Shown: piece by piece, positions 9,463 through 44,585 of the stretch
Layout of the letters: the number at the start of each line of letters is the position of its first letter
Numbering within the stretch: position 1 is the stretch's first letter
Assembly (NCBI GenBank): GCA_963782055.1
Contig: CAWAIF010000003.1
Span: 4,416,001 to 4,480,000 of the forward strand
DNA: 64,000 bases
Origin: an uncultured delta proteobacterium
GTDB taxonomy: Bacteria; Myxococcota_A; Polyangia; Polyangiales; Polyangiaceae
Direction: 5' to 3'
Translations under genes and position numbers: made by a program
The notes under the pieces: generated by a model
Told to the model about the DNA's origin: nothing
Database searches by the model: none
Seen by the model: only the letters and a program-made list of their open reading frames with translations

Positions 9463-10788
9463 CCTGGATTTCGCTCGCACCGGTCCTCGGAGCGGGCGCG
9501 GGCGTCGCACGGGTCGGCGCGTCCCGGATCGGTGCCCGGCACGGCTGCCGCGCACGATAAGCGCGTAGCGTGAGCACACGTCCCCCTTTCCCCCGCCTCG
9601 CAAACCAAGTTGTGTGCCGGTCAATTCAGCATCGGGCGAGGAGCGAGTCGCAGCTGCCAGCGACCCCCGACGCGCAGCAGGCGAGCGGGCACCAGGACGC
9701 AGGCGCGACGCATCCAGGTCGCGCGCCAGTGTGCCACGGCGGTCCCCGGGCACAGCGACAGCACCCAGCGACGCATCAGGTTGTAGGCCAGCAGCTTGAG
9801 CAGCAACGCGGCCTCGTTGGCGTCGAAGGTGTTCGTCGGGGCGTAGCCGATGCCGAAGGCGTTCTTGAGCTCGGCGAAGAGCGGCTCGATCCCCGCCCGG
9901 CCGTCGTAGAAGCGCGCCACGTCGTCGGCGTCGCGGTCGTGATCGTTGGTCAGGTAGACCTGCGCCGAGTAGTCGAGGTCCTCCCAGAGGTGGACCTGCT
10001 TGCCGGTGTCGCGCTCGCTGGTCCGCACCGCCACCACGCGCCAGCCGGGAGGCCAGTCGTCGCGGCGGAAGTCCACCACGGCGACCTGTCGCGTCGGCTC
10101 GCCGAAGGCATCGCGATCGGTCGTGCGCCAGCGCGTCGTGCGCGCGACGGCGCTCATCAGGTTGGCGGTCTGCCGCATCTTCGCCACGAAGTACGCCCCG
10201 CCGCGCTCGACCGCAGAAAGCAGCGCTGCAGACTCTCCGCCGGAGTCGATCCGCATCGTCACCACGGCTTTCGGCGCGGCGCGATGCAGCCGTCCGATCC
10301 ACTGCGCGATGTCCTCGACGTCGTCCTCGCCGATGCCCGTGTCGCCCGGCCGCAGCCGCGCTCCGAGCATCGTATCGGTCTCGGCGATGCGCGCCAGGAT
10401 CGGGTGATAGCTCACGCGGCCGTGGTAGCGCGGGTTGTAGCCGACGTGCGCTCCCTCTTGCTCGCCGAACAGCGGCGTCACCGTCGTGTCCACGTCGATG
10501 GTCAGCTCCTTGGCGCGGAGCTTGGTGAGCGGCTTGAGCCCCTGCTCGGCCATCAGCTCTTCCAGCCTCTCGAGCTCGCGGCCCCTGAAGCGCCGCAGAT
10601 CGTCGTAGAGCACGTCGATGCTCGGCACGATGCCGCCGGCGAGGTGCCGGAACACCGGGTCCGTCGCGAGCACCTCGAAGTCGAAGATGCGCCGCGCTCC
10701 CGCCACCGACGCGTCGAGCAGAAGCTGAATCTGCGCCGCCATCGGATAGACCACCTGCGCTCCGGTCTTGAGGTGCCCGAAGTCCCGC
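9463..10788 (-). mobile_element. Second IS1380 copy, 5'-truncated by the 100-bp repeat
   Basis: Near-identical to 7377-8702; stops at agtcccgc|caccctgg. Confidence 0.92.
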
Positions 10789-10888
10789 CACCCTGGTCCG
10801 TCCTTCCAGTGACACCGGACGGCCCCACTTCGCATAAGATGGATTCCGTAAACTTTCGCGCCCGACCGCGCTAGGATTTCCTATGCGC
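10789..10888 (+). repeat. 100-bp dif-like unit, copy 2
   Basis: Identical to copy 1. Confidence 0.97.
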
Positions 10889-17279: not shown

Positions 17280-17479
17280 CACCCTGGTCCGTCCTTCCAG
17301 TGACACCGGACGGCCCCACTTCGCATAAGAGGGATTTCGTAAACTTTCGTGCCCGACAGCGCTAGCATTTCCTATGCGCCACCCTGGTCCGTCCTTCCAG
17401 TGACACCGGACGGCCCCACTTCGCATAAGATGGATTTCGTAAACTTTCGCGCCCGACCGCGCTAGCATTTCTTATGCGC
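17280..17479 (+). repeat. Head-to-tail dimer of the 100-bp unit (copies 5 and 6)
   Basis: 17280-17379 and 17380-17479 with no intervening DNA: CCTATGCGC|CACCCTGG. Confidence 0.97.
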
Positions 17480-21973: not shown

Positions 21974-23437
21974 GGGAATGTCCCCGGCGATGTTGAACTT
22001 CTGAAGTTGTAGCGGCGGCTCCTTGGCCGGCCTGAGAATCGGGTCGACCAAGAACCAACTGCCCGGGACGGGGCAAGGAGCCGCCATGAAGAAGAGAGCC
22101 GCAAAGAGGAACAGGAAGCAAGAGGCGTCGGCGGGGGCCGCGCTGCCGGAGGCGTTCCGGCAGATGGTCCTGCCGATGATCGCCGGCATCGAGGTCACTC
22201 GGAGCGGCTTGCTGGCGTTCGTCCACGCGATGGGTCGCGCCGCACTCGACGAGCTTCTTCGGGGCGAGGCCGAGCGCGTCGCTGGCCCGAAGGGCAAGCA
22301 CGTCGCTGGTCGTGCCGCGCACCACTGGGGTACGACCCACACGCCGCTGCCGTTCGGTGGGCGTGACATCGTCGTGCAGCGGCCGCGCGTCCGCAGCAAG
22401 GACGGGCGCGAGGTCGCCTTGCCGTTGGTGGAGGAGCTTCGTCGTCGCGACCCGCTGCCCGACCGGGTCGCCGAGCAGATCGTGCTCGGCGTCTCGACGC
22501 GCGGCTACGAGCGGAGCCTGGAGCCGGTCGCGGCCGGAACCAGGACGCGGCGCGCGAGCAAGAGTGCGGCGAGCCGGGCGCTCGTGGACAAGACCACGGA
22601 GAGGATGAGCGCGTTCCTCCGCCGCCGTCTTGACGCGCTCGACATCGTGGCGATGTTCGCCGACGGACTGGAGGTGGCGAGCCAGACAGTCATCGTGGCC
22701 CTCGGCGTCACGGCCGACGGGACGAAGGTGCCGCTGGGCCTCTGGCTCGGCTCGACGGAGAACGCGGCGGTCTGCACCTCGCTCGTGCAGAACCTGGTCG
22801 AGCGGGGGCTGAGGATCGACGGCAAGATCCTGTGCGTGATCGACGGCGGCAAGGGGCTGCGCAAGGCGCTCTGCGACGTGCTCGGGTCGAGCGCGGTGCT
22901 GCAGCGCTGCCAGGTCCACAAGACGCGCAACGTCCGCGACCATCTGCCCGACTCGCGCAGGGCGTACGTGAGCGGCCAGATGCGCGAGGCGTACCGGACG
23001 CGCAACGCGAAGGTCGCCAAGAAGCGCCTGCTTCAGCTCGCGTCGTGGCTCGACAAGAACGGCGAGGACGCGGCGGCCGGCAGCCTGCGCGAGGGTCTCG
23101 ACGAGACGCTCACCGTGCTCAAGCTCGGCCTCCATCCCACCCTCTGCCGCACCTTCGCGACGACCAACGCCATCGAGAACATGAACGGGACCATCCGCCG
23201 CATCACGCGCAACGTGAAGCGCTGGCGCGGCGGCCCGATGATCCGCCGCTGGGTCGCCCTCGCGGTGGTCGAAGCGCAGAAGAAGTTTCGGCGCGTGAAG
23301 GGTCACGCCCACATGTCCGCGCTCGTCCGCGCCCTGCGCCCCGAGCAGCTCCCCGTTGCCGACGAGGAGAAGGTCGCGTAGTCCATCAGACCGCCGCCGG
23401 TGCGACTGCCAAGTTCAACACGGCGTGGGACATCCCC
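21974..23437 (+). mobile_element. IS256-family element
   Basis: IRs GGGAATGTCC...TGTTGAACTT / AAGTTCAACA...GGACATCCCC; 8-bp TSD CCCGGAGG. Confidence 0.93.
22086..23381 (+). CDS. IS256-family transposase
   Basis: GVSTRGY, FADG, VIDGGKGL, QRCQVHK.RN, TTNAIE. Confidence 0.95.
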   Translation: MKKRAAKRNRKQEASAGAALPEAFRQMVLPMIAGIEVTRSGLLAFVHAMGRAALDELLRGEAERVAGPKGKHVAGRAAHHWGTTHTPLPFGGRDIVVQRPRVRSKDGREVALPLVEELRRRDPLPDRVAEQIVLGVSTRGYERSLEPVAAGTRTRRASKSAASRALVDKTTERMSAFLRRRLDALDIVAMFADGLEVASQTVIVALGVTADGTKVPLGLWLGSTENAAVCTSLVQNLVERGLRIDGKILCVIDGGKGLRKALCDVLGSSAVLQRCQVHKTRNVRDHLPDSRRAYVSGQMREAYRTRNAKVAKKRLLQLASWLDKNGEDAAAGSLREGLDETLTVLKLGLHPTLCRTFATTNAIENMNGTIRRITRNVKRWRGGPMIRRWVALAVVEAQKKFRRVKGHAHMSALVRALRPEQLPVADEEKVA

Positions 23438-25376: not shown

Positions 25377-25425
25377 CACCCTGGTCCGTCCTTCCAGTGA
25401 CACCGGACGGCCCCACTTCGCATAA
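25377..25425 (+). repeat. Left half of 100-bp unit (copy 10), ends at the XerC-like arm
   Basis: ...ACTTCGCATAA then foreign sequence; right half at 31012. Confidence 0.95.
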
Positions 25426-26053
25426 GTAAGAGTCGATTGCGTGAGCGCGCCGGGTCGCGGCGGCGGTCGCGTGGCGCGGGTGCGCGGTCGCGAAATCGAC
25501 GGTTGGACGAAGCCGGTGCGCGGCAGCGGCGAGGCGGTGGCCTCGGAGCCCTATGGGGAAGTTGGCGGCGTGTGGGTCACGTGTGCGGGTGCGCGAGGTG
25601 CGGAGCGGGCGGCGGGACGGCGCTCGACGCGGGCGTCCCGGAGCGCGCAGCGGGCAGCCGTGCGTGCTCGGAGGCCGGGTTTTCGTGGCGTGGATGGACA
25701 GGGGCCTGGGCCGCACTCGTGGAGCGAGCGCAGTGGAGCACGACGCGGGGAGATCATGCGGCCCCCGGCGGGTCGCGAGCTCGGGGCTCCGGCAGCGCGG
25801 TACGCACGAGGGCAGGCGTGTGGCAAGCGGGGCAGCGGTGCAGGTCGATGCCCGCGATTCGCAGCAGCAGGTCGGCGGCGTCGACACGGCGCACCGGTCG
25901 CGCAGCGGGCGCCGCGTGCGGACCCAGTCTGCGGCGTGCGGTCTCGAGGCGCGTGGTGGCGTGGCTGGCGGAGTGCAGGGTAACCCATCGGTGATCTGAC
26001 GTACTCCCCGGCGGGACGGATCCCCGCTACGCGCATTGGCGGAGGTCAGCGCG

Positions 26054-26386
26054 ATGGGAAAGCGGGACGGTGCGCGGCAGTGGCGGCAGTGGACGGAGCA
26101 GCAGGCGCGGGCGGCCCTCGCGGAGCTCGCGGCGAGCGGTGAGAGCGCGGCGGGCTTCGCGCGGCGCAAGGGCGTGTCGTCGCAGCGGCTCGCGTACTGG
26201 AGGGGCCGCCTCGCGCGTCCGGCGAGCACGGAGTTCGTGGCCGTGGAGCTTGCGGGCGACAGCCTGGCGCGGTGGATGGAGATCGTCGTTGGGGGTGTGG
26301 TCGTTCGCGTGCGGGAGGAGCTGGACGCGGAGCGGGTGGCGCAGCTGGTGAGGGCGCTCGGGCGGCAGGTGGGCGGCGCGTGCTGA
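26054..26386 (+). CDS. IS66 accessory protein TnpA
   Basis: [24 protein letters not shown]. Confidence 0.85.
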
Positions 26387-26754
26387 CGCTGCCGCCCGGC
26401 GTGCGCGTGTTCGTCGCGACCGAGCGCGTCGACGGGCGCAAGGGGATCGACGGGCTCTCGGTGCTCGTGCGGTCACGGTTCGCCGAGGACCCGCTCTCGG
26501 GGACGATGTTCGTCTTCTTCTCGCGTCGCGCCGACCGCGTGCGAGTCCTGTACTGGGATCGCGACGGCTACGTGCTCATCACCAAGCGGCTGGAGAAGGG
26601 AAGCTACCGGTTGCCGTGGCCCGGCGAGGGAGGGCGCGCGGTCATCGAAGCGGCGGAGCTGCTCCTGGTGCTCGAGGGGATCGAGCTTCGCGGGGCCGGC
26701 CGGCGGATGCGCTGGTCGCCCTCCCCCCGTGTGCGACCGGCGCCCACTTTGTGA
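26380..26754 (+). CDS. IS66 accessory protein TnpB
   Basis: [30 protein letters not shown]. Confidence 0.92.
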
Positions 26755-26822
26755 GATCCATCTTCGTGGCTGCGATCGAATCGTCTTTCCATCGGGCGCG
26801 CCCTGCGGCAAAGAGGATCAGC

Positions 26823-28424
26823 GTGTCCGCGTCGAGCAACAAGCACCCGCCCATCACCAGCGCGATCGAGCCCGATCTCGGCGCGGTGAGGAAGTTCATC
26901 GCGGACATGATCGCCAGGGGCGCCGTCGCCGAGCTGATCGCTGCGGTCGTGGGGTTGCTCGTGCGCATGCGCGAGCTCAACACGGAGTTGATGCGCAGGG
27001 TCGCGAGCAAGTCGCGCAGGCGCCCGCCCAACGAGGCGATGCGGCGCCTGCAGATGGAGCTGCCGTTTCTGTGCGCGCCCGCCGCCAACGATGGCGCCAA
27101 ACCCGGCCTCCCCCGGGAGAAGAAGCCGAGGAAGCGCGGCGCCCACAAGCCCACGCCGCATGGCCGGCCCAAGCTGCCGGCGCACCTGCCGCGCGTCCCC
27201 AACGTGCTCCTGGTCCCCGCCGCCGATCGCGTGTGTCCGGACTGCGACGTCGCGCTCACGCGCGTCTGCCTCAAGACCACGGCGGAGAAGCTCGACGTCA
27301 GGCCGTCGGAGTACATCGTCGTGCAGACGCAGCTCGAGACGTGCTCCTGTCCCAAGTGTCGCCGCTACCTCGTGACCGCGCCCACCCCGGACGAGGTCGT
27401 GGATCGTGGGCTGCTCGGCGACGAGCTTCTCGTGCAGGCGCTGGTGGATCACTACCAGGACGCGGTGCCGTGGGAGCGGATGGAGCGCAACGCGCGACAA
27501 CAGGACGTGCCGCTCGCCGCCAACACGGTGGCGTCCTCCGTCGGGAAGGTGATCGACCTGTTCGACCCCGTCGTGCGCCACATCCGCGAGGCGTGCCTGT
27601 CGTCGAGCTTCACCGCGCTCGACGCGACGCGCATGCCCGTGCTCGACCCGACGCATCCGCTCGGCATCAAGAGCGGCGCGCTCTGGCTCATCGAGGGGGA
27701 TCATCGCCATGCGTGCTTCCTCTACGCGCCGAGCGGCCACGCCGAGCACCTGAAGAAGTTCTTCGAGGGCCGCACGCTCCGCAGCGTGATGTGCGATGGG
27801 TCGCCCACCAACAACTGCGTCGAGCACGCCGGCGGCCATCGTGGCGGCTGCAACGCCCATGGCCGGCGCGGCCTGGTCGAGGCGCTTCGTCGCGGCGACG
27901 CGCGCGCCGTGCCCGGGCTGGAGCTCTACGCCAAGATCTTCCACGTCGACGCCCAGTCCAGGCGCGCAGGCGAGAGCATCGACCGGCGCTTCGAGCGGCG
28001 CCTCGAGGACAGCGCGCCCATCGTGGCCGAGCTTCGCGCCTGGCTCTCCCTGCGCCTCGCCGACGTCGAGCCCAGGAGCGTGCTCGGCCAGGCGCTCCGC
28101 TACCTCGATCGCCAGTGGTCGCGCCTCACGGCCTTCCTTCGCGATCCGCGCATGGAGCTCACCAACAACGAGGTCGAGGCCGGACTTCGGACCTGGGTCC
28201 TCGATCGCAAGACGTGGCTCTTCGTCGGCCACGAGCAGAGCGCACGCCGCGCCGCCGACGCCCTCACCCTCCTCACCACGTGCAAGAAGATGGCGATCGA
28301 CCCGCGCGCCTACTTGCGCGACACCCTCGCGAGGATCCTCGCTGGTGAGAAGAGCCTGGCGGCGCTGCTGCCGGAGACCTACGCGGCCTCGCGCGCCGAG
28401 CGGGCGCCACCCCGCGCCGCGTAG
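26823..28424 (+). CDS. IS66 transposase TnpC
   Basis: LPAHLPR, CPDC, DAT, CNAHGRR, TNNEVE, RKTWLF. Confidence 0.93.
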   Translation: MSASSNKHPPITSAIEPDLGAVRKFIADMIARGAVAELIAAVVGLLVRMRELNTELMRRVASKSRRRPPNEAMRRLQMELPFLCAPAANDGAKPGLPREKKPRKRGAHKPTPHGRPKLPAHLPRVPNVLLVPAADRVCPDCDVALTRVCLKTTAEKLDVRPSEYIVVQTQLETCSCPKCRRYLVTAPTPDEVVDRGLLGDELLVQALVDHYQDAVPWERMERNARQQDVPLAANTVASSVGKVIDLFDPVVRHIREACLSSSFTALDATRMPVLDPTHPLGIKSGALWLIEGDHRHACFLYAPSGHAEHLKKFFEGRTLRSVMCDGSPTNNCVEHAGGHRGGCNAHGRRGLVEALRRGDARAVPGLELYAKIFHVDAQSRRAGESIDRRFERRLEDSAPIVAELRAWLSLRLADVEPRSVLGQALRYLDRQWSRLTAFLRDPRMELTNNEVEAGLRTWVLDRKTWLFVGHEQSARRAADALTLLTTCKKMAIDPRAYLRDTLARILAGEKSLAALLPETYAASRAERAPPRAA

Positions 28425-28486
28425 CCCTCACGGACATGCGCTCCGGGGGGCTGACGCGCCGCCGGGGCCGTGCTTTCGTGCACGTC

Positions 28487-28945
28487 ATGTTGCCGCTCGA
28501 AGGCTCGTTGCTGGAGAAGTTGCGCAAGATCGAGGCGCTCCACGCGGGCACGCGCGTGGATGGCGAGCGCGAGGCCGCGCGGCGCGCCGCCGAGCGCATT
28601 CGTGCCCGGCTCGCCGAGCTTCGCGGCCGCGAGCAGGACACCCTGCTCCACTACACCCTGCCCGATCCCTGGACACGCAGGCTCTTCGTCGCGCTGTGTC
28701 GCCGCTACGGTCTCGTCCCCTTTCGCGAGAGCGGCCGCCGGTACACCACCGTCCAGGTGCGCGCACCCAAGGCCTTCCACGACCACACGCTCTGGCCGCA
28801 GTTCCTCGCGCTCTCCGAGGAGCTCAACGCGCACCTCGACGAGCTCACCACCCGCGTCATCCGCGAGGCGATCAACGACGACGTGAGCGACCCGCAAGAC
28901 GGCGCTCCGCCCAAGGCGCTGCCCGAGCCGACTCGCGGCGCCTGA
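28487..28945 (+). CDS. IS66 passenger hypothetical protein
   Basis: LLEKLRKIEALHAG..GEREAA; inside the IS66 IRs. Confidence 0.7.
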   Translation: MLPLEGSLLEKLRKIEALHAGTRVDGEREAARRAAERIRARLAELRGREQDTLLHYTLPDPWTRRLFVALCRRYGLVPFRESGRRYTTVQVRAPKAFHDHTLWPQFLALSEELNAHLDELTTRVIREAINDDVSDPQDGAPPKALPEPTRGA

Positions 28946-29985
28946 CGCCGTCATGGCTCCAGCCGACGGCGGGCGGACAGCACGCGCCAGTCGCCGGATC
29001 AACAGGCCCCGTGGACGTCGATCACCGATGGGTTACGGTGCAGGCCGTAGTGGCGGATCTTGACGAAGCCGCGCGGCAGCACGTGCTGGACGAAGCGCGC
29101 GAGCAGCTCCTCGGCCGGGACGGTGACCGACTTGCCGTCTCTGGTGCGGAAGGTGACGCCGCGCTCGCCCATCGAGACGAAGCGGTGGTTGGAGATGCCG
29201 ACGCGGTGAGTGTAGCGACCGAGGTAGCGGATGACCTGAGCGGGGCCGCCGAAGGGTCGCTTGGCGTAGACGACCCAGGCCTTGCGTCGGAGCGCCAGCA
29301 GGTCGACGCCGCCCAGGTCGACGAGGCCGCGCGCGTGGGCGCGCTCGAGAGCGGCGAGCATCTTGCCGCGAAAGAGCGCGCCCATCACGCGCACGGGGAA
29401 GAGGAAGCGACGGCGCGCGCGCACCCAGCGCGCGGCGTGGCCGGTGAGTCCGCCGCCGGTGACGATGGCGTGCACGTGGGGGTGGAAGAGCAGCGCGCGC
29501 GTCCAGGTGTGCAGGACCATCGTGACGCCGAGCTCGGCGCCGAGCCACTTCGGATCCCGCGCGAGGGTGGCCAGCGTGTCGGCCGCGCTCGCGAAGAGCA
29601 TGTCGAAGACCCGCGCGCGCGAGCGCCGCGCGACGGCGCGCAGCTCGGCGGGGAGCGTGAAGACGACGTGGAAGTAGTGCACGGGCAGAATGCGCTCGAG
29701 CCGCGTGGCGACCCACCGCGCCTGCGCGAGCGACTGGCACTTGGGACAGTGCCGGTTGCGGCACGAGTTGTACGACGGTCGCTCGAGCCCGCACGCGGTG
29801 CACACGTCCAGATGTCCGCCCAGCGCGGCGGTCCGGCATCGCTCGATCGCCCGCAGCGCCGACCGCTCCTCGGGACGCAGCACGCGGCCGCCGGCGAAGG
29901 CCTCGCCGTGGGCGCGCACCACGTCCGCGAGCTCGATGGGCGCCGCGCGCGTGCGCGCGGGCGCACACGACGGGTGCATCGGGGC

Positions 29986-30831
29986 TCAGGGCAGCGCGTC
30001 GAGGGGGCTCTGAATCGACTGCACGCGGGCGGTGCTCACGTGCAGGTAGGCCATCGTGCTCCTGAGCGACGCGTGCCCGAGCAAGACCTGCAACGTGCGA
30101 AGGTCGGTCCCTGCGTCGAGCAGGTGCGTGGCGAAGCTGTGGCGCAGCGTGTGCGGCGACACGCGCCGGGTGATGCCCGCGCGCCGCGCCGCCTTGAGGA
30201 TCGCCCGGTGGACGGCCGCGCGCGTGAGGAGCGTCCCGGGCACGCGCCCCGGAAACAGTTGCGGTCCTGCGGGTCGTGACGCCTTCCAGTACGCGCGCAG
30301 CGTCGCCAGCAGCCTCGCGCTGAGCATCACGTAGCGCTCACGCCCGCGCTTGGTGTGCCGCACGTGCAGGAGCATCCGCTTCGGATCGATGTCGTCCACC
30401 CGGAGCTTGCACACCTCGCTCACGCGCAGCCCCGCCCCGTAGGCGAGCATCACCAGGGCCCGGTGCTTGTGGCTCGTGAGCGACGCGAGCAGCCGCGCCA
30501 CCTCCGCGCTCGTCAGCACCACCGGCACGTGCATCGGCACCCGCATGCGCGCCATCCCCAGCGTCGCCTCCGGCCGCTCCAGCGTCACCTCGTAGAGAAA
30601 CCTCAGCGCGGCCGCGTGCACGTTGACCGTCAGCGCCGCCAGCCTGCGCTCCGCCACCAGGTGCAAAAGGAACGTCCGGATCTCCGCCGCCCCCAGCGCG
30701 CACGGCGACCGCCCGTGGTACTGCGCGAACCGCCGCACGCACCCCACGTACGTGGCGATCGTGTTGGCGCTCATCCCTCGCAGCGCGAGGTCCTCGCTCA
30801 TCGTGTCCCGCAGTCTTCGCTTCGCACCCAT
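29986..30831 (-). CDS. Tyrosine recombinase (SAM-like N-terminus)
   Basis: GAGLRVSE, TKRGRER, HTLRHSFATH, LLGH, Y; full catalytic set. Confidence 0.95.
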   Translation of the reverse strand: MGAKRRLRDTMSEDLALRGMSANTIATYVGCVRRFAQYHGRSPCALGAAEIRTFLLHLVAERRLAALTVNVHAAALRFLYEVTLERPEATLGMARMRVPMHVPVVLTSAEVARLLASLTSHKHRALVMLAYGAGLRVSEVCKLRVDDIDPKRMLLHVRHTKRGRERYVMLSARLLATLRAYWKASRPAGPQLFPGRVPGTLLTRAAVHRAILKAARRAGITRRVSPHTLRHSFATHLLDAGTDLRTLQVLLGHASLRSTMAYLHVSTARVQSIQSPLDALP

Positions 30832-31011
30832 CGCGGCCTCCTTCGGCTCCGCGCGCGCCCACGAGCGGGCGGCGCGCGCCGCAGGATCGCCCGCATCACG
30901 GCACGCGAGGGCTACGAGGCGGGCTCGTCAGCGCGCACACGGCTCGCGGGGCTCCCGGGTCGCGAGCGAGCTTGATGCGGAGCCACGCTGCCGCGCAGCG
31001 GCTTCGTCCAA

Positions 31012-31062
31012 GATGGGTTTCGTAAACTTTCGCGCCCGACCGCGCTAGGATTTCCTATGCGC
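31012..31062 (+). repeat. Right half of 100-bp unit (copy 10)
   Basis: GATGGG TTTCGTAAACT...CCTATGCGC preceded by element arm GCTTCGTCCAA. Confidence 0.95.
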
Positions 31063-34559: not shown

Positions 34560-34608
34560 CACCCTGGTCCGTCCTTCCAGTGACACCGGACGGCCCCACT
34601 TCGCATAA
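34560..34608 (+). repeat. Left half of 100-bp unit (copy 11)
   Basis: Ends TCGCATAA (the IS66 TSD). Confidence 0.95.
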
Positions 34609-36124
34609 GTCTCTGCTTAGCGGCCGGAAGACGGCCCGCGGCCCGGGCGTGACGTCGACCGTCGGAGGACTCGCCGGCTAGTGGGCAAAGACAGACGGAG
34701 GCGGCTTGCCGTGGAGGTGACTTTCGTACAGCCCGATGACGAAGCCCCGAAGCGGGAGCTGGCACTTGCGCCGCGTCTGCGTGATGCTCATCCAGTGCGC
34801 CAGGGTGGCGCTGCCGGCGGCCGAGCGCGTTCCGCCGGTCATCGCGCGGTGCCGCCCGTGGGCGCGGATGTCGCGTTCGGTCGCGTTGTTCGTGGCCGGG
34901 ACGTCGGGGCGGTCGATGAAGAGCGTCACCCCCACCTTGTGCTCGTCGAGGCGCTCCTGCAGCCGGACGATGTCCGGGAACTCCACGAAGTTGGTGCTGC
35001 TGATGAGATGGCCGAGGCGGATGCGCGCGCCTCGGCGCTGCTCGGGATCGCCGCTCGCCGCGGCGTGCTTGCCCGCGACGTAGAAGCCGATGAGTCGGTC
35101 GCGGAACTCCTCGGTCGCGGCGCACGGGGTGAGCTCGGCGATCTTCTTGGCCTCGCGGATGGTGTGCGCACCGCAGTAGGCGTGGGTCCAGCCGTCGTGA
35201 CTCGTGTACACGCCGTAGAAGTCGGTGCACAGGACTCCTTTGAAGCTCGCGCCGAGCATCGACTCGGCGACCCACGCGCCGCGCGACAGCTCGGCGCGGA
35301 AGACCGAGACGCGGTCGGTGCGCATCAGCCACATCCAACCCGGCACGCCGTCCTGTCGATGGCCGCTCTCGTCGAGGCCCGCCACGGGCGATGCGCGCAC
35401 CGCGTCGACCAGCTCGTCGTAGCTCGGCGCCGAGCGGCGTCGCAATCGGTCGAACATCTGCGCCAGGCCGCCGGTCGTGATCGAGATGCCGAGCCACTGT
35501 CCGAGGAACGCACTGATCTTGCCCAGCGGCATGTCGCGCTCGAAGCGCAGGTCCAGCGCCATCGCCTGCACGTTGGGGCCGAACGACACCGCGGCGACGC
35601 TCTTGCCCGCCGCCGGCGCGCCCGGCAGCTTCGCGACCACGCGCTTGTGGCACACCTCGCAGCTGCCGACGTGCGCCACGTGATGCGTCTGCCGCGGCTG
35701 CACCACTGGGATGTCGGTGACGACTGTGCTGTCCGTCTCGCCCGTCGCCACGACTGCCCCGCCACAGCTGCACGTCGCCGGCATCTCGTGCACGACTTCG
35801 TCGTCGACGTGGGCCGGTGCGGCGGGCCGCGATCCGACATGGCCCACCTTGCGGCCGCGCGGCTTGCCCGAGGGCGCCCGCCGACCCTCGGAGCGCGACG
35901 TCCGCCGCTTCCCGCGCTCCCGGAACCCGCGCTTCCACTCCTCGATCTCCTTGCGCAGCTTCGCCAGCTCTTCGCGAAGCGCGGCGTTCTCCTGCTCCAG
36001 CTCCTGGATCCGCTGCTCGGGCGTCACGTGATCCGGGATGCTCCCGATCAGGTCCCATGGAAAGAACTTCTCGCATCAGGAACGAAGAATGGACCCACAG
36101 TGTGCGACACCGCTAAGCAGACAC
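34609..36124 (-). mobile_element. Single-ORF IS66-family element inserted in the dif-like site
   Basis: IR GT(C/G)TCTGCTTAGCGG; 8-bp TSD TCGCATAA at 34601-34608 and 36125-36132. Confidence 0.93.
34678..36027 (-). CDS. IS66-family transposase
   Basis: Coiled coil, GLDESG, CTDFYGVY, CGAHTIRE, TNNATERDIR. Confidence 0.93.
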   Translation of the reverse strand: MTPEQRIQELEQENAALREELAKLRKEIEEWKRGFRERGKRRTSRSEGRRAPSGKPRGRKVGHVGSRPAAPAHVDDEVVHEMPATCSCGGAVVATGETDSTVVTDIPVVQPRQTHHVAHVGSCEVCHKRVVAKLPGAPAAGKSVAAVSFGPNVQAMALDLRFERDMPLGKISAFLGQWLGISITTGGLAQMFDRLRRRSAPSYDELVDAVRASPVAGLDESGHRQDGVPGWMWLMRTDRVSVFRAELSRGAWVAESMLGASFKGVLCTDFYGVYTSHDGWTHAYCGAHTIREAKKIAELTPCAATEEFRDRLIGFYVAGKHAAASGDPEQRRGARIRLGHLISSTNFVEFPDIVRLQERLDEHKVGVTLFIDRPDVPATNNATERDIRAHGRHRAMTGGTRSAAGSATLAHWMSITQTRRKCQLPLRGFVIGLYESHLHGKPPPSVFAH

Positions 36125-36183
36125 TCGCATAAGATGGGTTTCGTAAACTTTCGCGCCCGACCGCGCTAGGATTTCCTATGCGC
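36125..36183 (+). repeat. Right half of 100-bp unit (copy 11)
   Basis: TCGCATAA GATGGG TTTCGTAAACT...CCTATGCGC. Confidence 0.95.
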
Positions 36184-37655: not shown

Positions 37656-38265
37656 CAGATGTCTGCGAGCGCCTTGGCGACCTTGCCACCTACGTCCTTC
37701 CGCCAGCGACGACCGTAGTATCGCTCAACGATGAGCCTCTCTCGGCGCGAGAAGGCTCGCAAGAACGTGCGAGTGCTGGTGCTCGTTCACGACCCCTTCG
37801 AGCGTTGCGACGGTGGCGGACCTGAGCCACCGATCGAGGTAGGTTGCGAATCGCGTGGGCAGATCCTCCACGGTTTCCATCCTACCTTCGTCGGGCGAGT
37901 GTAGGGCCTCGCCTTCCCTCGTGATCCCCCGCTTGGTCTCTCCCGGTCTCTGTGCCCGTTCAATCGCCTGAGACGTTGGCGCAGTCCGGCACCTGAGACG
38001 CGGCGCAGGCCGGCGGCGATCACCAGGAATTCGTGGTGAGACGTGCCGGCGCGCGAGCATGCGTCGGACAAAAGGAGTGAGCCCGCACGTCTGGACCACG
38101 TGCGGGCTCGTGTCAGCGCCGTGCAAGTTCTGTGGAAATGCCCGCTCTCCGACGAGGGCTACGTTCATGGCCAGATCCTTTGGACATAACGTGGCGGAAT
38201 GATGGAAATAAATCGGGCGCCTTTCTCGTTGTTCGGTTGCGACACCAACAAGGAGAGGACGCCCG

Positions 38266-39597
38266 ATGACGACGAGAGCTACCCGAGCCACGAGCAGCCG
38301 TCCAGACCCGAGCGAAGAGGCGAGCGCGGTGGAGGAGCAGCTGCAGCGGACCTTCACGCCGGCGGTCATCGACGAGCTTCGGGGCCGCACCGGCTACAAC
38401 CCGCGGCAGCGGCGCGCCACCGCGTTCCGCCTGGTGCTCACGGTCGTCGAGGGGTTCCTCGCGGGCCAGACGCTGTCGTTCGAGTCGCTGCGGGCGATCT
38501 TCGTGAGGCGCTTCGGCTTCATGCGCCCGTGCCCGTTCCAGAAGCGGTTCAAGCAGGAGTCGGCGGCGGCGTTCTTCCGCGCGGCGCTCGAGCACCTCGT
38601 GGCGTCGGTGACGAAGGCGGCGGGCCTGGAGCTGAGCGGGCCGCTCGCCCGCTTCGAGGACGTGCGGGTCTACGACGGTACGGGGCAGCGCGTGCCACCG
38701 CGCGGGCGCGAGCTGCTGCCGGGATGCACCAAGGGCAAGGCCGGCACCAAGTGGGTGATGGGCTACAGCATCAAGACCGGCCTGCTCGAGCACGGCGTCT
38801 CCGACGCGGAGACCGCGTCGGAGACGCCGCTGTGGCGGAAGCTGGTCCCGAGCTTCACGCGCGGGGTGCTCTACCTCTTCGACCTCGGCTTCTTCGAGCG
38901 CGCTCTGTTCACCCAGGCGAAGGCTGCCGGCGCGCACGTGCTGATGCGCCTCAAGACCACGGCGAAGGTACGCGTGACCGCGCACATCTCGGAGAACGGC
39001 CACACCCCGCTCCACAACTGGTCGCTTGGCTACTACCTGCAGAGCGTGTCGCGCAAGCGCGGGACGATCTTCGACCTCGACGTGACGTGGGGCAAGGGCA
39101 AGGACACCGTCGCATTGCGGCTCGTGGGACTCGCGCACAAGTCGACCGTCATCCGCTGGTACCTGACCACCGTGCCGCGCAGCGTGCTCTCGCCACGGCA
39201 GATCATCCAGACCTACCGACTCCGCTGGCTGATCGAGCTGCTCTTTCGCGAGCTGAAGCAGACCGCCGACCTCGGCCGCTCCTTCACCGCCGATCCCCAC
39301 GCGATCAAGGCGCTCACCTACGGCGCGATGCTCGCCCACGCGCTCGTGCGCTCGGTCAGGATCCAGGCTGCACTCGCGCGCGACGTCCCTCTCGAGCAAC
39401 TGCGCCCCCTGGCGACGTTGCACGTCGTGCGCGCCTACGCGCGGGACCTGGTCGACGCCCTCGTCTCCCTGAGCACCGCCGCGTGGACTGCCGTCGTGAC
39501 CACCGTGGGCGCGGCACTCGTCGCTCTGGCACGCGAACGACAACCTTCACGCTCCAGGAAACGAATCGCCCTCAAACTTGGGGCGATCGGTGCTTAA
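38266..39597 (+). CDS. IS4-family transposase
   Basis: VYDGT, LFDLGF, YRLRWLIELLFRELK (YREK). Confidence 0.93.
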   Translation: MTTRATRATSSRPDPSEEASAVEEQLQRTFTPAVIDELRGRTGYNPRQRRATAFRLVLTVVEGFLAGQTLSFESLRAIFVRRFGFMRPCPFQKRFKQESAAAFFRAALEHLVASVTKAAGLELSGPLARFEDVRVYDGTGQRVPPRGRELLPGCTKGKAGTKWVMGYSIKTGLLEHGVSDAETASETPLWRKLVPSFTRGVLYLFDLGFFERALFTQAKAAGAHVLMRLKTTAKVRVTAHISENGHTPLHNWSLGYYLQSVSRKRGTIFDLDVTWGKGKDTVALRLVGLAHKSTVIRWYLTTVPRSVLSPRQIIQTYRLRWLIELLFRELKQTADLGRSFTADPHAIKALTYGAMLAHALVRSVRIQAALARDVPLEQLRPLATLHVVRAYARDLVDALVSLSTAAWTAVVTTVGAALVALARERQPSRSRKRIALKLGAIGA

Positions 39598-39607
39598 GAG
39601 ATCGGGC

Positions 39608-41643
39608 ATTGGTAGATCCTTACACCTTGGCCGCCCTACGGCGGCGGTTGGAGTCAAGACCCCCTCTCAAACCGTGCGTGCGGATTTCCCGCACACGGCT
39701 TACCGGTGGTCTCTCGTGACGCGGCATTACGCGGCCTCCGGGTAGCGGATGGTCCCGCGCAGGCGGTGGAGCCCGAAGCCTTCGACGAAGTAGTCGCGGG
39801 TCCAGCGCTCGGCTTGTCCGGCCTTGAGCTTCGAGCCGGCCCGTTTCAGGCGCAGCGCTCGAAGCCGTTCGTACACGTACTCGTCGAGTCGGTTGAACTT
39901 CACGTCGGCGTTCCCGGTGCGAAAGTACTCGCCCCAGCCACGCAGCACGGGGTTGAGCTGCGCGACGACGTCGCGCAGGTCCGCGTGGCAGCGTGATCGC
40001 GGGGTGAGGTCCCTCACGCGCTGCCGGATCCGCTTCATCGCGCGAGCCGATGGCCAGCGCTGGAGGAAGTACACGCGTTTGCGCGACCTCTCCCAGATGG
40101 ACCCGCTCAAGCGTTTCCGCAGGTGGCAGCCGAGGAAGTCGAACCCCTTCTTACCCCAGGAGAGGTCCAGCTTCCTCGTCTTGTCCGGGTGCAGCTCAAG
40201 CCCGAGTCGCGTCATCACGTGCTTCACGCGAAGCTCGGCCTCGTCGACGTCACGCTTCGTCCTGCACATCACGACGAAGTCGTCCGCATAACGAACCAGC
40301 TCGCCAAGATGCGCGCACCGCTTCGTCCACACGTCGTCGAGCACGGCGAGGTAGATGTTCGAGAGCAGCGGCGAGATCACCCCGCCCTGCGGCGTGCCGC
40401 TGGAGGGGTTGGTCACCGTGCCTTCGTCCATCACCCCCGCCGTGAGCCACTGCCGCAGCAGCTTGAGCACCCTCCGGTCCGAGATGCGCCGCTCGACGAG
40501 CTTCATCAGCTTGTCGTGATCGATGCTCCCGAAGTAGTCACGGATGTCGGCGTCGAGCACGTGGTTGTACCCCTTCGCGCCGAGCTTCCTCAGCGTCTCC
40601 AGGGCGTCCGTCGCGCTCCGCCCGATACGGAAGCCGTACGAGCACGAGCGAAAGCTCGCCTCGAAGATCGGCTCCAGCACGAGCTTCGTCGCCATCTGCA
40701 CCACCCGGTCTCGGACCGTCGGGATCCCAAGCGGCCGCTTCTTCCCATCGGCCTTCGGGATGTACCGGCGCAGCACCGCTGCCGGCCGGTACCTGCCTGC
40801 ACGGAGCACGTCATGGATCTCTCCGAGGAGTCGATCCACTCCGTACACCTCGAGCGCCGCGATCGTCTGGGCATCGACGCCCGCGGCTCCCTTGTTCCTC
40901 CTTACCCGCTTCCACGCTTCCGCGAGGACGTCACGCCTCGCGATGCGGTCATACAGCGCGTGGAATCGGCGCTCCGGATGCCGCTTGGCCGCGGCACACA
41001 GCCGGCGTTGCAGTTGTCGCACTTTGTCCATGGGCTGTCGCCGATGGGGGTGGTTGGGACCGGTCTCGCCGGCCATGCCCTCGCGCTTACCTGCTCCGCC
41101 GACACGACCACTGCAGGGGTCTTTCCCTCCTGCCGCGTTGTTCTTCACGGCGTTCGTTCGCGAAGCTCGCGCCTCGCTCTTCGGTACAGTGACCCCCTCG
41201 GACTCCCGCTGCGCAGCGGCCGACTTCGCCTCTGGCTTATACGACGCGCCTTGCCCCGACGAGGGCGACGCAGACGGGCCTCCCGAGTTCCGCACTCCTC
41301 CTTGCACGCGTGCTGCGCTCCCTACCCCGCCGGGACCGACGGCGCGTTTCGGATCTGGCGCCGCCGATATTGCCTTCGCCGCGACATGATCGGCTCGGCT
41401 CCCGGTTTGTAGATCTGACGAGGCTGCAAGCTTCACTTCATGTTGCGGCCCGCGTGCTCGCTCGGTCCGTGGACCCTTTCGACGCCCCGCTCGGCCGACG
41501 GGATCTCTCCCGCTCGGCTGGGGCCTGCTACCCGGCGCTCCGACGCTTACCGGTGCGGGACTCTCACCCGCTGGAGAAGCGCAGCTTGAGGCAGGTCGTT
41601 CGTCGGGCATGCCCGACGGACGACCTGCTTCTTCACGGCGCAC
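39608..41643 (-). mobile_element. Group II intron
   Basis: 5' GTGCG at 41643; domain V AAGCCGTGTGCGGGAAATCCGCACGCACGGTT; 3' end CTACCAAT. Confidence 0.92.
39727..41031 (-). CDS. ltrA: Group II intron reverse transcriptase/maturase, no endonuclease domain
   Basis: NKGAAGVD, RPLGIPTVRDR, GTPQGGVISPLL, YADD, LRGWGEYF. Confidence 0.95.
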   Translation of the reverse strand: MDKVRQLQRRLCAAAKRHPERRFHALYDRIARRDVLAEAWKRVRRNKGAAGVDAQTIAALEVYGVDRLLGEIHDVLRAGRYRPAAVLRRYIPKADGKKRPLGIPTVRDRVVQMATKLVLEPIFEASFRSCSYGFRIGRSATDALETLRKLGAKGYNHVLDADIRDYFGSIDHDKLMKLVERRISDRRVLKLLRQWLTAGVMDEGTVTNPSSGTPQGGVISPLLSNIYLAVLDDVWTKRCAHLGELVRYADDFVVMCRTKRDVDEAELRVKHVMTRLGLELHPDKTRKLDLSWGKKGFDFLGCHLRKRLSGSIWERSRKRVYFLQRWPSARAMKRIRQRVRDLTPRSRCHADLRDVVAQLNPVLRGWGEYFRTGNADVKFNRLDEYVYERLRALRLKRAGSKLKAGQAERWTRDYFVEGFGLHRLRGTIRYPEAA

Positions 41644-42303
41644 CATGGGGCTACGTTACTCAACGTGCGTGGGAAAGCGCAATTCTCGACAGCTGCCCGT
41701 TCCACCCGGAGGGCGGTTGCGGCCTCGAGAAGCTCGGGAGCTACCCCCGCGTCGAGCCCGCAGGCGTGCGCGTCGCGCGCTGGTGGTGCCCCAGGCAGCG
41801 GGCGTCGATCAGCCTCTTGCCGTCGTTCCTCGCGGCGCGGCTCTCCGGCACGCTCGCCGCGGTCGAAGACGTCGTCACCGCGGTGGAGGCCGCCGGCGGT
41901 GTCGCGGCGGCGGTGGACGCGGTGCACCCGCCGGACGCCGACGACGCCGTCGGGCTCGTGTGCGCGCTGAGGTCGATCCGTCGGCGGGCATCGGCGGTGC
42001 GCGCCGCGCTGCTCGCGATCGCGACGCTGATGCCCGAGCGGTTCGCAGGCGTCAGGCCGACGCTCGCCGCCTTCCGCGAGGCGCTCGGGTGCCATCGCGT
42101 GCTCGTCGTGCTGCGCGAGCTCGGCGAGCGGCACCTCGGTGCGTTGCCCGTCCCTCTCGGATTGCGCACGCGGGCGACCGGGTGACCGGGGGTCGCCGCG
42201 GCCGGCCCACACGAAAGGGTGCCGGCTGCCGGCGGCGATCTCGCCGAGCTTGCCGGCACGCCGCTCGGAAAGGGTCCGGGCGAGCGCACCGAAGGCATCC
42301 GCC

Positions 42304-43191
42304 ATGCACACCGATTCCCACGACACACCGACACCCGAGATCGACGAGCGCCGGCGCGAGATCGCGCTCTTCCGCTACGGCGTCATCGCCGACCTCGTGC
42401 ACCTCGAGCCGCACCACCGCGGCCTCTATGCGCTGCTCGCAAAGAAGGCCGAGCTCGACTACACGATCCCCGGCTCGCTGCGCCGGCACGTCGCGCCGGA
42501 GACGATGCGCGGCTGGCTCCGTGCCTACCGCCAAGGTGGCTTCGATGCACTCGCGCCGCGCGTACGAGCCGACCAGGGCAGCACGCGGTCGATCCCGATG
42601 CACGTCGTCGACCTGCTCTGCCAGATGAAGGAGGACTCGCCCGAGCTCTCGATCCCCGCGCTGATCAAGGTCGCACGCGCCGACCACGCCCACGTCGTCA
42701 CCGACGAGGTCGCGCTCCCCGAGTCGACGGTGCACCGCGTGCTCGCGCGCCGCGGGCTCATGAAGAAGCAGCCCGAGGAGCCGACGAGCAAAGACCGGCG
42801 TCGCTTCGAGCACGAGAGCGCCGGCGACCTCTGGATGAGCGACGACTCCGAGAACCGCCTAACCGTCGTGCTCGTCGGCCATCCCGAGCTGCGCCGCCGC
42901 ATGAGCATGGCAGCCCTCGACGCCCTCGCGCAGCGCGTCGTCGTGCGCGCCCACGTCCGCGGGCTCACGCGCGAGGAGATGGGCCCGTACCTCGCCCATC
43001 GCCTCCATCTCGCCGCCTCCGACGTCCCACTCTTCGAGCCGCCGACCGTCGAGGCGATCTTCCAGGCGTCGAGCGGCTTGCCGCGCAAGGCCAACGGGCT
43101 CGCCCATCACGCACTCTTCGCCGCCGCCATCGCCAAGGCGAAGTCCGTCACCACCGAGCATGTCCAGGCGGCGATGCAGGAGGTCGCGTAG
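42304..43191 (+). pseudogene. Deletion fusion: DDE transposase N-terminus + ExeA-like ATPase C-terminus
   Basis: IALFRYGVI...RRRFE..GDLWMSD joined in frame to DSENRLTVVLVGHPEL...SSGLPRKAN. Confidence 0.8.
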
Positions 43192-43821: not shown

Positions 43822-44362
43822 CTCACCAGTACGCGCGCAGCGCCTCGAGCAGTCGTGGGCTGAGCATCACGTAACGCTCGCGCCCGCGCTTGGTGTGGCG
43901 CACATGCAGCAGCATGCGCTTCGGATCGATGTCGTCGACGCGCAGCTTGCAGACCTCGCTGACGCGCAGACCGGCACCGTAGGCCAGCATCACGAGCACC
44001 CGGTGCTTGTCGGTCGCGAGCGCGCCGAGCAGCTTCTCCACCTCGACGTGCGTCAGCACCACCGGCACGTGCATCGGCACCCGCATGCGTGGCATCAGGG
44101 CGATCTCCTTGGGCCGCCCGAGCGTCACCGCGTACAGGAACTTCAGCGCCCCGGCGTAGACGTTGAACGTCGCGGCGGCCACCCGGCGCTCCTGCGCGAG
44201 GTGTAGCAGGAATGTGCGGATCTCGTCGGCGCCCATCGCGCACGGGGAGCGACGGAAGTGCTCGGCGAACTTCCGCGCGCACCGCACGTAGGCGTCGATC
44301 GTGTTGGCGCTCATGCCTCGCAGCGCCAGGTCCTCTCGCATCTTGTCGCGTAGTCTTCGCAT
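43822..44362 (-). pseudogene. Second tyrosine recombinase, 3'-truncated
   Basis: Close paralog of 29986-30831; stops after LRAYW, lacks HxxR/H/Y. Confidence 0.9.
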
Positions 44363-44533
44363 CGCGGCCTCCTTCGGCTCGCGCGCGCCCGAGAGCGGGC
44401 GGCGCGAAGACTCAGGATCGCAGGGGCGGGCAGGAGCTACGAGACGGACTCGCGCCGCCGCTGCGAGGGCGACCTGTCAAGCAGGCCACGGCGTCCATGC
44501 GAAGCGATGCTGCCGCGCAGTGGCTTCGTCCAA

Positions 44534-44585
44534 GATGGATTTCGTAAACTTTCGCGCCCGACCGCGCATAGGATTTCCTATGCGC
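44534..44585 (+). repeat. Right half of 100-bp unit (copy 12)
   Basis: Preceded by the same element arm GCTTCGTCCAA (44523-44533). Confidence 0.93.

Follow-up and report, generated by a model that had tools for sequence, protein, structure and literature searches.

An IS91-family element with an integron/Xer-like recombinase at dif-like seams of cassette arrays in a Polyangiaceae genome

The window analysed here is a 64,000-nucleotide stretch (C3:4416001-4480000, where C3 is contig CAWAIF010000003.1) of the genome of an uncultured Polyangiaceae bacterium (G000, 69% G+C). An array of ~100-bp repeats, all on the + strand, occupies ~4.7-36 kb of the window, and one of these repeats, copy 10, is split by a mobile element that pairs int, a tyrosine recombinase gene, with a Y2 transposase gene from the IS91 insertion-sequence (IS) family. 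Comparison of the junctions of this int + Y2 element lends good support to precise insertion at the boundary of XerC-like arm and spacer in dif-mimicking 28-bp cores, in one orientation and without target duplication. The split repeat, the element and a second IS nested within it are laid out as follows.

25377..25425, + strand: left half of repeat copy 10, with hairpin GGTCCGTCC (25383-25391)...GGACGGCC (25405-25412) and XerC-like arm ACTTCGCATAA (25415-25425)
25426..25528, + strand: ori-side terminus of the element, with linker GTAAGA, a ~72-nt imperfect hairpin (25432-25502), and an inverted ter-arm copy plus small palindrome (25503-25528)
25754..25979, - strand: C-terminal part of the Y2 transposase, an open frame ending ...GIDLHRCPAC..., severed by the IS66-family insertion
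25980..29038, + strand: IS66-family IS nested in Y2, 3.06 kb (TnpB_IS66 105 bits, DDE_Tnp_IS66 180 bits)
29039..29979, - strand: N-terminal 313 codons of the Y2 transposase (Zn_Tnp_IS91 104 bits, Y2_Tnp 164 bits)
29986..30831, - strand: int, a 281-aa tyrosine recombinase, integron/Xer-like (Phage_integrase 137 bits, SAM_4 67 bits)
30987..31011, + strand: ter-side terminus, with 13-nt palindrome GCTGCCGCGCAGC (30987-30999), G, and C-like arm GCTTCGTCCAA (31001-31011) ending at the element boundary
31012..31062, + strand: right half of repeat copy 10, with spacer GATGGG, XerD-like arm TTTCGTAAACT (31018-31028), then ttcgcgcccgaccgcgctaggatttcctatgcgc

Both junctions at copy 10 can be read directly, and they agree with the initial annotation, which had placed the split after ACTTCGCATAA and had the element supply a C-like arm of its own. 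The left half of the repeat, which matches the left halves of the nine intact repeats in the window exactly, ends with ACTTCGCATAA at 25425, and the element then begins GTAAGAGTCGATTGCGT. At the other end, the conserved C-like arm GCTTCGTCCAA (31001-31011) is followed by GATGGG-TTTCGTAAACT and the remainder of the repeat, and this right junction reads 11-6-11. Compared with intact sites, which read ACTTCGCATAA-GATGGA-TTTCGTAAACT, the ambiguity is confined to AAG and no part of the target is duplicated. As had been predicted, the joint lies where an XerC-type recombinase on the left arm would cut.

We are nearly certain that the insert is a rolling-circle element of the IS91 family and belongs to the subgroup in which int immediately precedes the gene for the Y2 HUH transposase. 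It measures 5,586 bp (25426-31011), with its coding sequence on the - strand, and 2,521 bp without the nested IS66-family IS. The latter is the length of the intact genome copies, which match the window copy at 99.6-99.8% in the right part and 98.7% in the left part. The int stop lies 6 nt ahead of the Y2 start, and the transposase scores 371 bits against NF033538 (cut-off 125). The Y2 frame is intact at 388 codons in genome copies A, B and C, while the window copy is disabled by the nested IS. This IS carries open reading frames (ORFs) at 26036-26386, 26272-26754, 26616-28424 and 28436-28945, has inverted ends GTAACCCATCGGTGATC and the target repeat (A/G)GTGCAGG, and is missing from other copies of the element; one more partial copy of it is present in the genome.

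The array repeats are built from a hairpin (GGTCCGTCC..GGACGGCC), a 28-bp core of the form ACTTCGCATAA-GA(T/G)GGA-TT(T/C)CGTAAACT, and 34 more conserved bases. At no more than three mismatches the core pattern is matched 10 times in the window and 0 times in shuffled sequence. The window's array comprises nine intact and three split sites, all in direct orientation, and a half-repeat map of the genome gives ~21 intact and ~12 occupied sites. These dif-mimicking cores form the seams of cassette arrays, and the int + Y2 element is present in about a third of the sites, in the manner of an invader. As a single strand, the 111-nt repeat unit has a computed fold no more stable than those of shuffles (z -0.9 and -0.4), the left hairpin being its sole stable part.

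A genome-wide scan for arm-6-arm sites returned, besides the array sites, a lone site, AATTCGCATAA-GATACA-TTATGTAAACT, at C3:3558740-3558767, no more than 20 kb from the point where the cumulative GC skew peaks on the 7.0-Mb contig. Judging from its sequence and position, we take this site as the true dif. The array core shares 23 of its 28 positions with this site (10/11 in the left arm and 9/11 in the right), and no copy of the element lies there. The left arms of target sites agree with the arm of this presumed dif at 7-11 of 11 positions and with the ter arm of the element at 4-7 of 11, and the D-like arms of target sites differ systematically from those of dif (..CG.. vs ..TG..). The ter arm itself agrees with the dif XerC arm at 6/11 positions, and the other side of the element has no XerD-like arm. 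The host encodes an XerD that scores over its cut-off (343.5 bits) and an XerC-like gene just under its own (322.1 bits).

Junctions in the genome, a related genome and metagenomes

Element termini in the whole genome comprise 13 ori ends and 14 ter ends. All 13 ori ends are preceded by (A/T)AA, eight times as ACTTCGCATAA, twice as ATTTCGCATAA, once each as TTTTCGTATAA and ATTTACCATAA, and once with an extra A. Beyond the ter end, a 6-bp spacer and T(T/G)(T/C)CGTAAACT follow in 11 of 14 cases, and in the remaining three a group II intron lies one base before the end of the ter arm. A single orientation is seen in all copies, with ori at the left half and ter at the right half, and in every junction read the left junction keeps the element linker while the right junction keeps the target spacer. 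This pattern is far beyond chance. The outer flanks beyond the repeat halves vary between copies, which points to separate insertions. Over the genome and the relatives described below, the target spacers vary as well (GATGGA, CGTGTG, CGGGCG, CGCGCG, GAGGTC). The repeat occupied by copy C has diverged, with a different hairpin sequence and the spacer CGTGTG, yet the element there is still 98.7% identical to the others; in one further copy the right half is perfect and the left flank, ATTTACCATAA, lacks a hairpin. The proposal that only AAG is shared between element and target holds for copy 10 but not over all element/target pairs, where the constant part before the joint is AA only.

Several copies are informative in other ways. 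Copies D, E and G and a copy at C3:6328xxx-6330256, at four sites, have in common an in-frame 201-bp deletion in the Y2 domain with int intact, which suggests that a Y2-defective derivative has spread. All three genome copies of one group II intron (C3:2272361, 6186555 and 5216047) lie at the same point of the ter arm, between GGCTTCGTCCA and A. This suggests that the intron homes to the recombination arm of the element, much as class C introns home to attC sites. Copy F (C3:5976388-5980805, locus L095) occupies a repeat that stands by itself, away from every array. Its left flank includes about 0.8 kb paralogous (75-93%) to the right flank, and this left-hand copy stops exactly at the start of the left half; an empty orthologous locus was searched for in the genus and none was found, the flanks having turned out to be mutually paralogous.

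Among 41 related genomes, the core pattern was found in G000 and one other, G004, and a close Int (75%) likewise only there. In G004 the ter arm GCTTCGTCCAA adjoins CGGGCG-TTCCGTAAACT twice and CAGGCG-TTACGTCACTT once, a fourth ter end is followed by CGGGCG and then unrelated DNA, and an intact ACTTCGCATAA-CGGGCG-TTCCGTAAACT is also present; thus conservation extends to the arms but not to the spacer. When metagenome contigs were scanned with a 24-base query from the ori end, 14 loci were obtained, 13 with a left flank, several of them being one site sampled repeatedly. Twelve of these 13 left flanks end in ATAA and one in ACAA, and they sort into four families of arms (AATTCGCATAA; TGATCGTATAA, preceded by a hairpin; GGTTGACA(T/C)AA; GAA(C/T)GCATAA). 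Three metagenome loci hold whole elements (Int 85%), with CGCGCG-ATCCGTCCCCT or GAGGTC-TTACGGTAACT beyond the ter arm. The outer repeat parts in G004 and the metagenomes are unrelated to those of G000, while the joint is identical. The junctions of the genome, G004 and the metagenomes bear out the expectation that the int + Y2 pair acts as an integrative element with specificity for site and orientation, unlike generic IS91. Relatives with an Int of 75-85% identity sit at dif-like sites and not at generic IS91 tetranucleotides.

Two candidates from these data were set aside. One 'skip' joint in the metagenome contigs is ambiguous in its placement between two identical right halves, and a reading of one G004 copy (L003) as an attP with spacer identity became less economical once the 13 metagenome junctions gave ...TAA/NN-AAGAGTCG (slash at the joint). 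The lone dif-like site of G004, in locus L004, has no synteny with the dif region of G000.

The gene pair itself is widespread. Y2 lies directly behind int in 37 of 79 Int-homologue loci from many phyla, and plasmid records annotate an 'IS91 family transposase' and 'site-specific integrase' pair. The ter motif, ccgcgNagc-GGCTTCGT(T/C)CAA, is found upstream of int in loci of several phyla, and in distant loci the small palindrome followed by GGCTTCGT(T/C)CAA is kept 95-250 bp upstream of int. In 27 distant loci with this motif at no more than three mismatches, likeness to the XerD arm peaks at an offset of 6 bp from the ter end (mean 4.56 vs 2.4-3.6 at 33 other offsets), where 7/27 loci score at least 7/11 vs 0-1 at any other offset. 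In distant homologues (Int 41-55%) the inverted ter-arm copy could be placed at the ori side.

The arrays and their own IS91-type gene

Three arrays are headed by a divergent IS91-type gene, Y2L (573 aa; Y2_Tnp 99 bits, Zn_Tnp_IS91 60 bits), at C3:4409731-4411452 (+), 5265299-5267020 (-) and 2741278-2742660 (-). One of these lies just upstream of the window's array and the other two upstream of two other arrays. Y2L reads toward the first repeat and ends 37-39 bp ahead of it. The 1.97-kb Y2L platform is 97.6% identical between two arrays, with unrelated chromosomal genes as its upstream neighbours. Of 401 genomes sampled from the phylum, 91 have a Y2L homologue. We examined five of these homologue loci; the contigs of three ended too soon, and in both of the others direct repeats of 92 or 135 nt form a pair around a segment of 2.1-2.9 kb immediately downstream. 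The array repeats may be ori/ter seams of IS91-type modules, in which case the int + Y2 element looks like an invader of the seams and not their maker. The suggestion in the initial annotation that the int + Y2 element is the enzyme source for the array is therefore doubtful, given the Y2L genes at the heads of three arrays and an occupancy of about a third of the sites, and we conclude that it is probably not that source.

Two further features of the window involve the same repeats.

34598..36149, + strand: next array site, its core split by another IS66-family IS
43826..44550, - strand: second copy of the int + Y2 element, diverged and truncated, with an int fragment (43826-44476, 75% aa identity) and the same ter arm (44523-44533)

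The ter arm of the truncated copy adjoins GATGGA-TTTCGTAAACT of another repeat. The IS66-family IS at ~34609-36124 has a single ORF, a transposase at 34681-36075 (-), and an 8-bp target repeat, TCGCATAA, which ends at the arm/spacer boundary, as does the int + Y2 joint. Two array repeats at 17318-17445 stand exactly 100 bp apart with zero bases between them, forming an 'empty cassette'. Most cassette ORFs of the window have no Pfam match. In the array at 2.74 Mb, one cassette (C3:2739480-2741120; locus L131 2480-4120, -) encodes the tip of an RHS-repeat protein with colicin-DNase and WHH nuclease domains, so at least some cassettes look like interbacterial toxin modules. The window is also a graveyard of mobile elements, with DDE_Tnp_1 genes at 7538-8956, 9624-10880 and 38212-39594 and a transposase of the Mutator type at 22005-23378. 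The interval from the array to the truncated second copy of int contains another group II intron reverse transcriptase/maturase (RVT_1, GIIM; 39730-41655, -) and a helix-turn-helix-type transposase-like ORF (42031-43188, +).

How the joint may be made

The preference of the element for Xer-type sites hints at the purpose of its extra recombinase. The best family match of Int is the integron integrase TIGR02249, at 198.9 bits (cut-off 265) in two stretches, followed by XerA, and the nearest solved structures are an XerC-like protein and IntI4. Int is without the IntI-specific insert; in the available text of a preprint, IS91-borne recombinases are grouped as 'integron-like' and likewise lack this insert (10.1101/542381). 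Residues R136, K161, H227, R230, H253 and Y262 of Int are invariant in five homologues (41-76% identity), and the nine int genes in the genome are 100% identical in protein, including those of copies with a deleted Y2. Conservation of the catalytic residues argues that Int cuts DNA somewhere in the life cycle.

We then consider the ends of the element. The ter end recurs in inverted form at 25503-25527, which is 77 nt inward of the ori end, with a match of 24/25. The linker at the ori end has the form NN-AAGA, where NN is GT here and TC, AT, CC or AC in relatives; in the adjacent hairpin, the lower stem is invariant across seven sequences and the upper stem is variable yet mostly paired. The + strand of the presumed circle joint has a computed fold of -74.3 kcal/mol, compared with -41.1 +/- 2.8 for 100 shuffles. 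In this fold the last 26 nt of the ter end pair with ori positions 78-103, and the joint falls between a 25-bp stem and the hairpin. The rejoined ends had been described as an imperfect inverted repeat, a description we do not uphold, as their best ungapped complementarity is 12/23, about that of chance. Features of IS91 that we tested for and found are the lack of target duplication, subterminal palindromes at both ends, and an ori downstream of tnpA.

Copying-out as a circle by the Y2 enzyme is established for IS91 itself, and we infer that the Y2 transposase of the int + Y2 element would likewise copy one strand out as a circle. In the circle strand, the ter/ori joint would fold so that the ter arm is double-stranded beside the unpaired linker and the 72-nt hairpin. 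Int may then bind the ter arm and the arms of a dif-like target and exchange one strand at the arm/spacer boundary, after which replication would complete the insertion, as with CTXphi at dif or cassettes at attI. A Xer-type enzyme bound to the left arm (XerC) cuts at the arm/spacer boundary. We favor Int as the joiner because the joint lies at such a cut, the ter arm ends at the boundary, and the right junction is always arm-6-arm. With just under an even chance in our estimation, Int-type single-strand exchange on a Y2-made circle is placed only slightly ahead of Y2-only chemistry.

Several points weigh against Int as the joiner. Tyrosine recombinases usually want 2-3 matched bases beside the cut, and the element linker never matches the target spacer beyond chance; this mismatch fits HUH nicking as well as it fits single-strand exchange of the IntI or CTX kind. 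Y2 and Int must both act on the same two bonds, and the ter arm is constant while target left arms vary, which amounts to no co-variation. The 27 loci of the distant-flank comparison are partly kin, and one of the two reference arms used there is an assumed motif. In the only four public runs that contain the stretch, all metagenomes (contigs only; best share of the stretch 0.32), we found no empty site and no ter/ori joint, and likewise no circle or excision product. The sequences before the two cuts, ...CCAA and ...ATAA, suit the ter/target logic of IS91. According to the available part of one account of IS91, its single-stranded circle is inserted by TnpA alone, its ends also have subterminal palindromes, and its ter cleavage tetranucleotide resembles the target tetranucleotide (PMC13181058).

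These points lead to a strong contender, though one that we hold to be distinctly short of an even chance, in which Y2 would nick after ...AA at both its own ter end and the target and join the single-stranded circle, Int not being the joiner. Int could instead select the site via the arms, sharpen ter recognition from the position that orf121 has in IS91, or act separately at the hybrid right junction in cassette exchange, excision or resolution. The element has the canonical traits of IS91 (no target duplication, a palindrome by the ter cut, an ori downstream of tnpA with two palindromes, and the likeness of CCAA and ATAA), and an HUH nick would be expected to tolerate total spacer heterology. 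The crossover is on the same strand in every junction read, the left half of the repeat (hairpin, 13 nt, cut) resembles the ter end (palindrome, 12 nt, cut), and the arrays are headed by an IS91-type gene. Y2-only joining fits less well with targets whose left arms are nearer to dif (7-11/11) than to the ter arm (4-7/11), or with the copy that has a perfect right half beside the hairpin-less left flank ATTTACCATAA. A D-like arm 3' of the cut persists across G000, G004 and the metagenomes, with enrichment at offset 6 among distant loci, and we know of no reason for an HUH enzyme to read such an arm. The target beside ori reads 5'-TTAT and not CTTG or GTTC, and the catalytic residues of Int are conserved.

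The host's own recombinases could also be responsible. The initial annotation had called the element IMEX-like (integrative mobile element exploiting Xer), and a true IMEX would have host XerC/XerD exchange strands as for CTXphi, with Int as an accessory. A joint at the XerC-type cut, target cores that share 23 of 28 positions with the presumed dif, and a host XerD over its cut-off and XerC-like gene just under are consistent with this explanation. We nevertheless regard it as improbable, and do not retain the label, since the presumed dif is unoccupied and the element itself encodes a catalytically intact recombinase of that clade. Between its ter arm and the dif XerC arm only 6/11 positions agree, its other side has no XerD-like arm, and the D-like arms at its targets depart systematically from dif (..CG.. 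vs ..TG..). A different explanation would make the repeat halves the outer ends of a longer element and the 'intact' 100-bp repeats its internally deleted copies (miniature inverted-repeat transposable elements, MITEs). The halves do flank every copy, and the occupied repeat of copy F stands alone, outside any array. We reject this explanation as very improbable, because the halves diverge independently of the element (copy C, with another hairpin and spacer around an element 98.7% identical to the rest), the same joint is seen in G004 and metagenomes despite unrelated outer repeat parts, and three arrays open with a repeat directly behind another gene.

Joining by Int can be extended to a broader and more speculative proposal, which we consider rather unlikely as a whole. 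The element would be a two-enzyme transposon in which copying-out of a single strand by an HUH enzyme is followed by insertion of that strand, once folded, into Xer/integron-type sites by an IntI-like recombinase. The invaded arrays would be a second cassette platform, made of tandem IS91-type modules headed by their own Y2 gene, whose ori/ter seams evolved to mimic dif and recruit Xer-type recombinases. Irrespective of the joining enzyme, the ~13 recent copies, which all lie in a dif-mimicking site at one and the same bond, amount to a natural experiment in one genome. If Int pastes, they would show a route from a low-specificity rolling-circle IS to an element that integrates at safe sites, as well as how IntI-like single-strand recombination came about outside integrons; if Y2 pastes, an HUH transposase guided to Xer-type sites. 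Should the two-enzyme proposal be true, the element would tie together, as a living link, IS91 elements, the cassettes of integrons and the phages among IMEX. Under both outcomes, arrays of cassettes with dif mimics at their seams and an HUH gene at their head would constitute a platform for gene shuffling separate from integrons.

Comparison with known systems

With the IS91 family (IS91, IS801, IS1294) the int + Y2 element has in common its transposase family, the lack of target duplication, a ter upstream and an ori downstream of tnpA, and subterminal palindromes. IS91 has orf121 upstream of tnpA, whereas the int + Y2 element has a 281-aa catalytic tyrosine recombinase there. The two also differ in their target, which here is a 28-bp dif-like core, and in the ter end, which here is an 11-bp recombinase-type arm. 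ISfinder contains IS91-family members with an upstream 'phage integrase' gene (ISAzo26, ISShvi3 and ISWz1 among others). They have the same gene pair in the same order; what is added here is a target that is a dif-mimicking seam, read at 13 + 14 junctions. In our literature search we found no description of site-specific insertion by this IS91 subgroup. The available text of one report places ISShvi3 beside an attC site (PMC9229058). For IS91, the accessible part of the account cited above gives the target next to oriIS as the tetranucleotide 5'-CTTG, GTTC or GTCC (PMC13181058). The tnpA-sense strand beside ori in our genome junctions reads differently, 5'-TTAT in 12 of 13, with an extra A in the other.

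Other elements are known to use Xer-type sites. The array sites are all direct, in contrast to those of Acinetobacter-type pdif modules, which alternate in inverted orientation. As far as the accessible part of one report goes, the IS1202 family (ISAjo2) targets pdif/dif sites in Acinetobacter (PMC10132070) and is similar in that an IS takes a fixed position and orientation relative to Xer sites. It is dissimilar in being DDE-type, in inserting 5 bp from the XerC arm and in making target repeats, by an unrelated mechanism.

CTXphi, an IMEX, enters dif by one XerC strand exchange, and its DNA is made with an HUH replication protein. Alike are the combination of an HUH enzyme and a Xer-type site, the joint at the XerC-type cut, a single strand that offers one good arm when folded, and the one-strand crossover. 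Unlike CTXphi, the int + Y2 element has its own recombinase, uses dif mimics and not dif, has no spacer homology, and is an IS and not a phage.

Integrons, in which IntI recombines folded single-stranded attC with attI, offer a further parallel. Int is the nearest relative of IntI, its gene points away from a hybrid site that cassettes follow, and single-strand exchange with unlike spacers is the rule in integrons. The int + Y2 element differs from an integron in that its Int is without the IntI insert and falls short of the TIGR02249 cut-off, its sites are dif-like, and an HUH transposase is aboard. By eye, the array repeats have a dif-like 11-6-11 core where attC sites have their box pattern.

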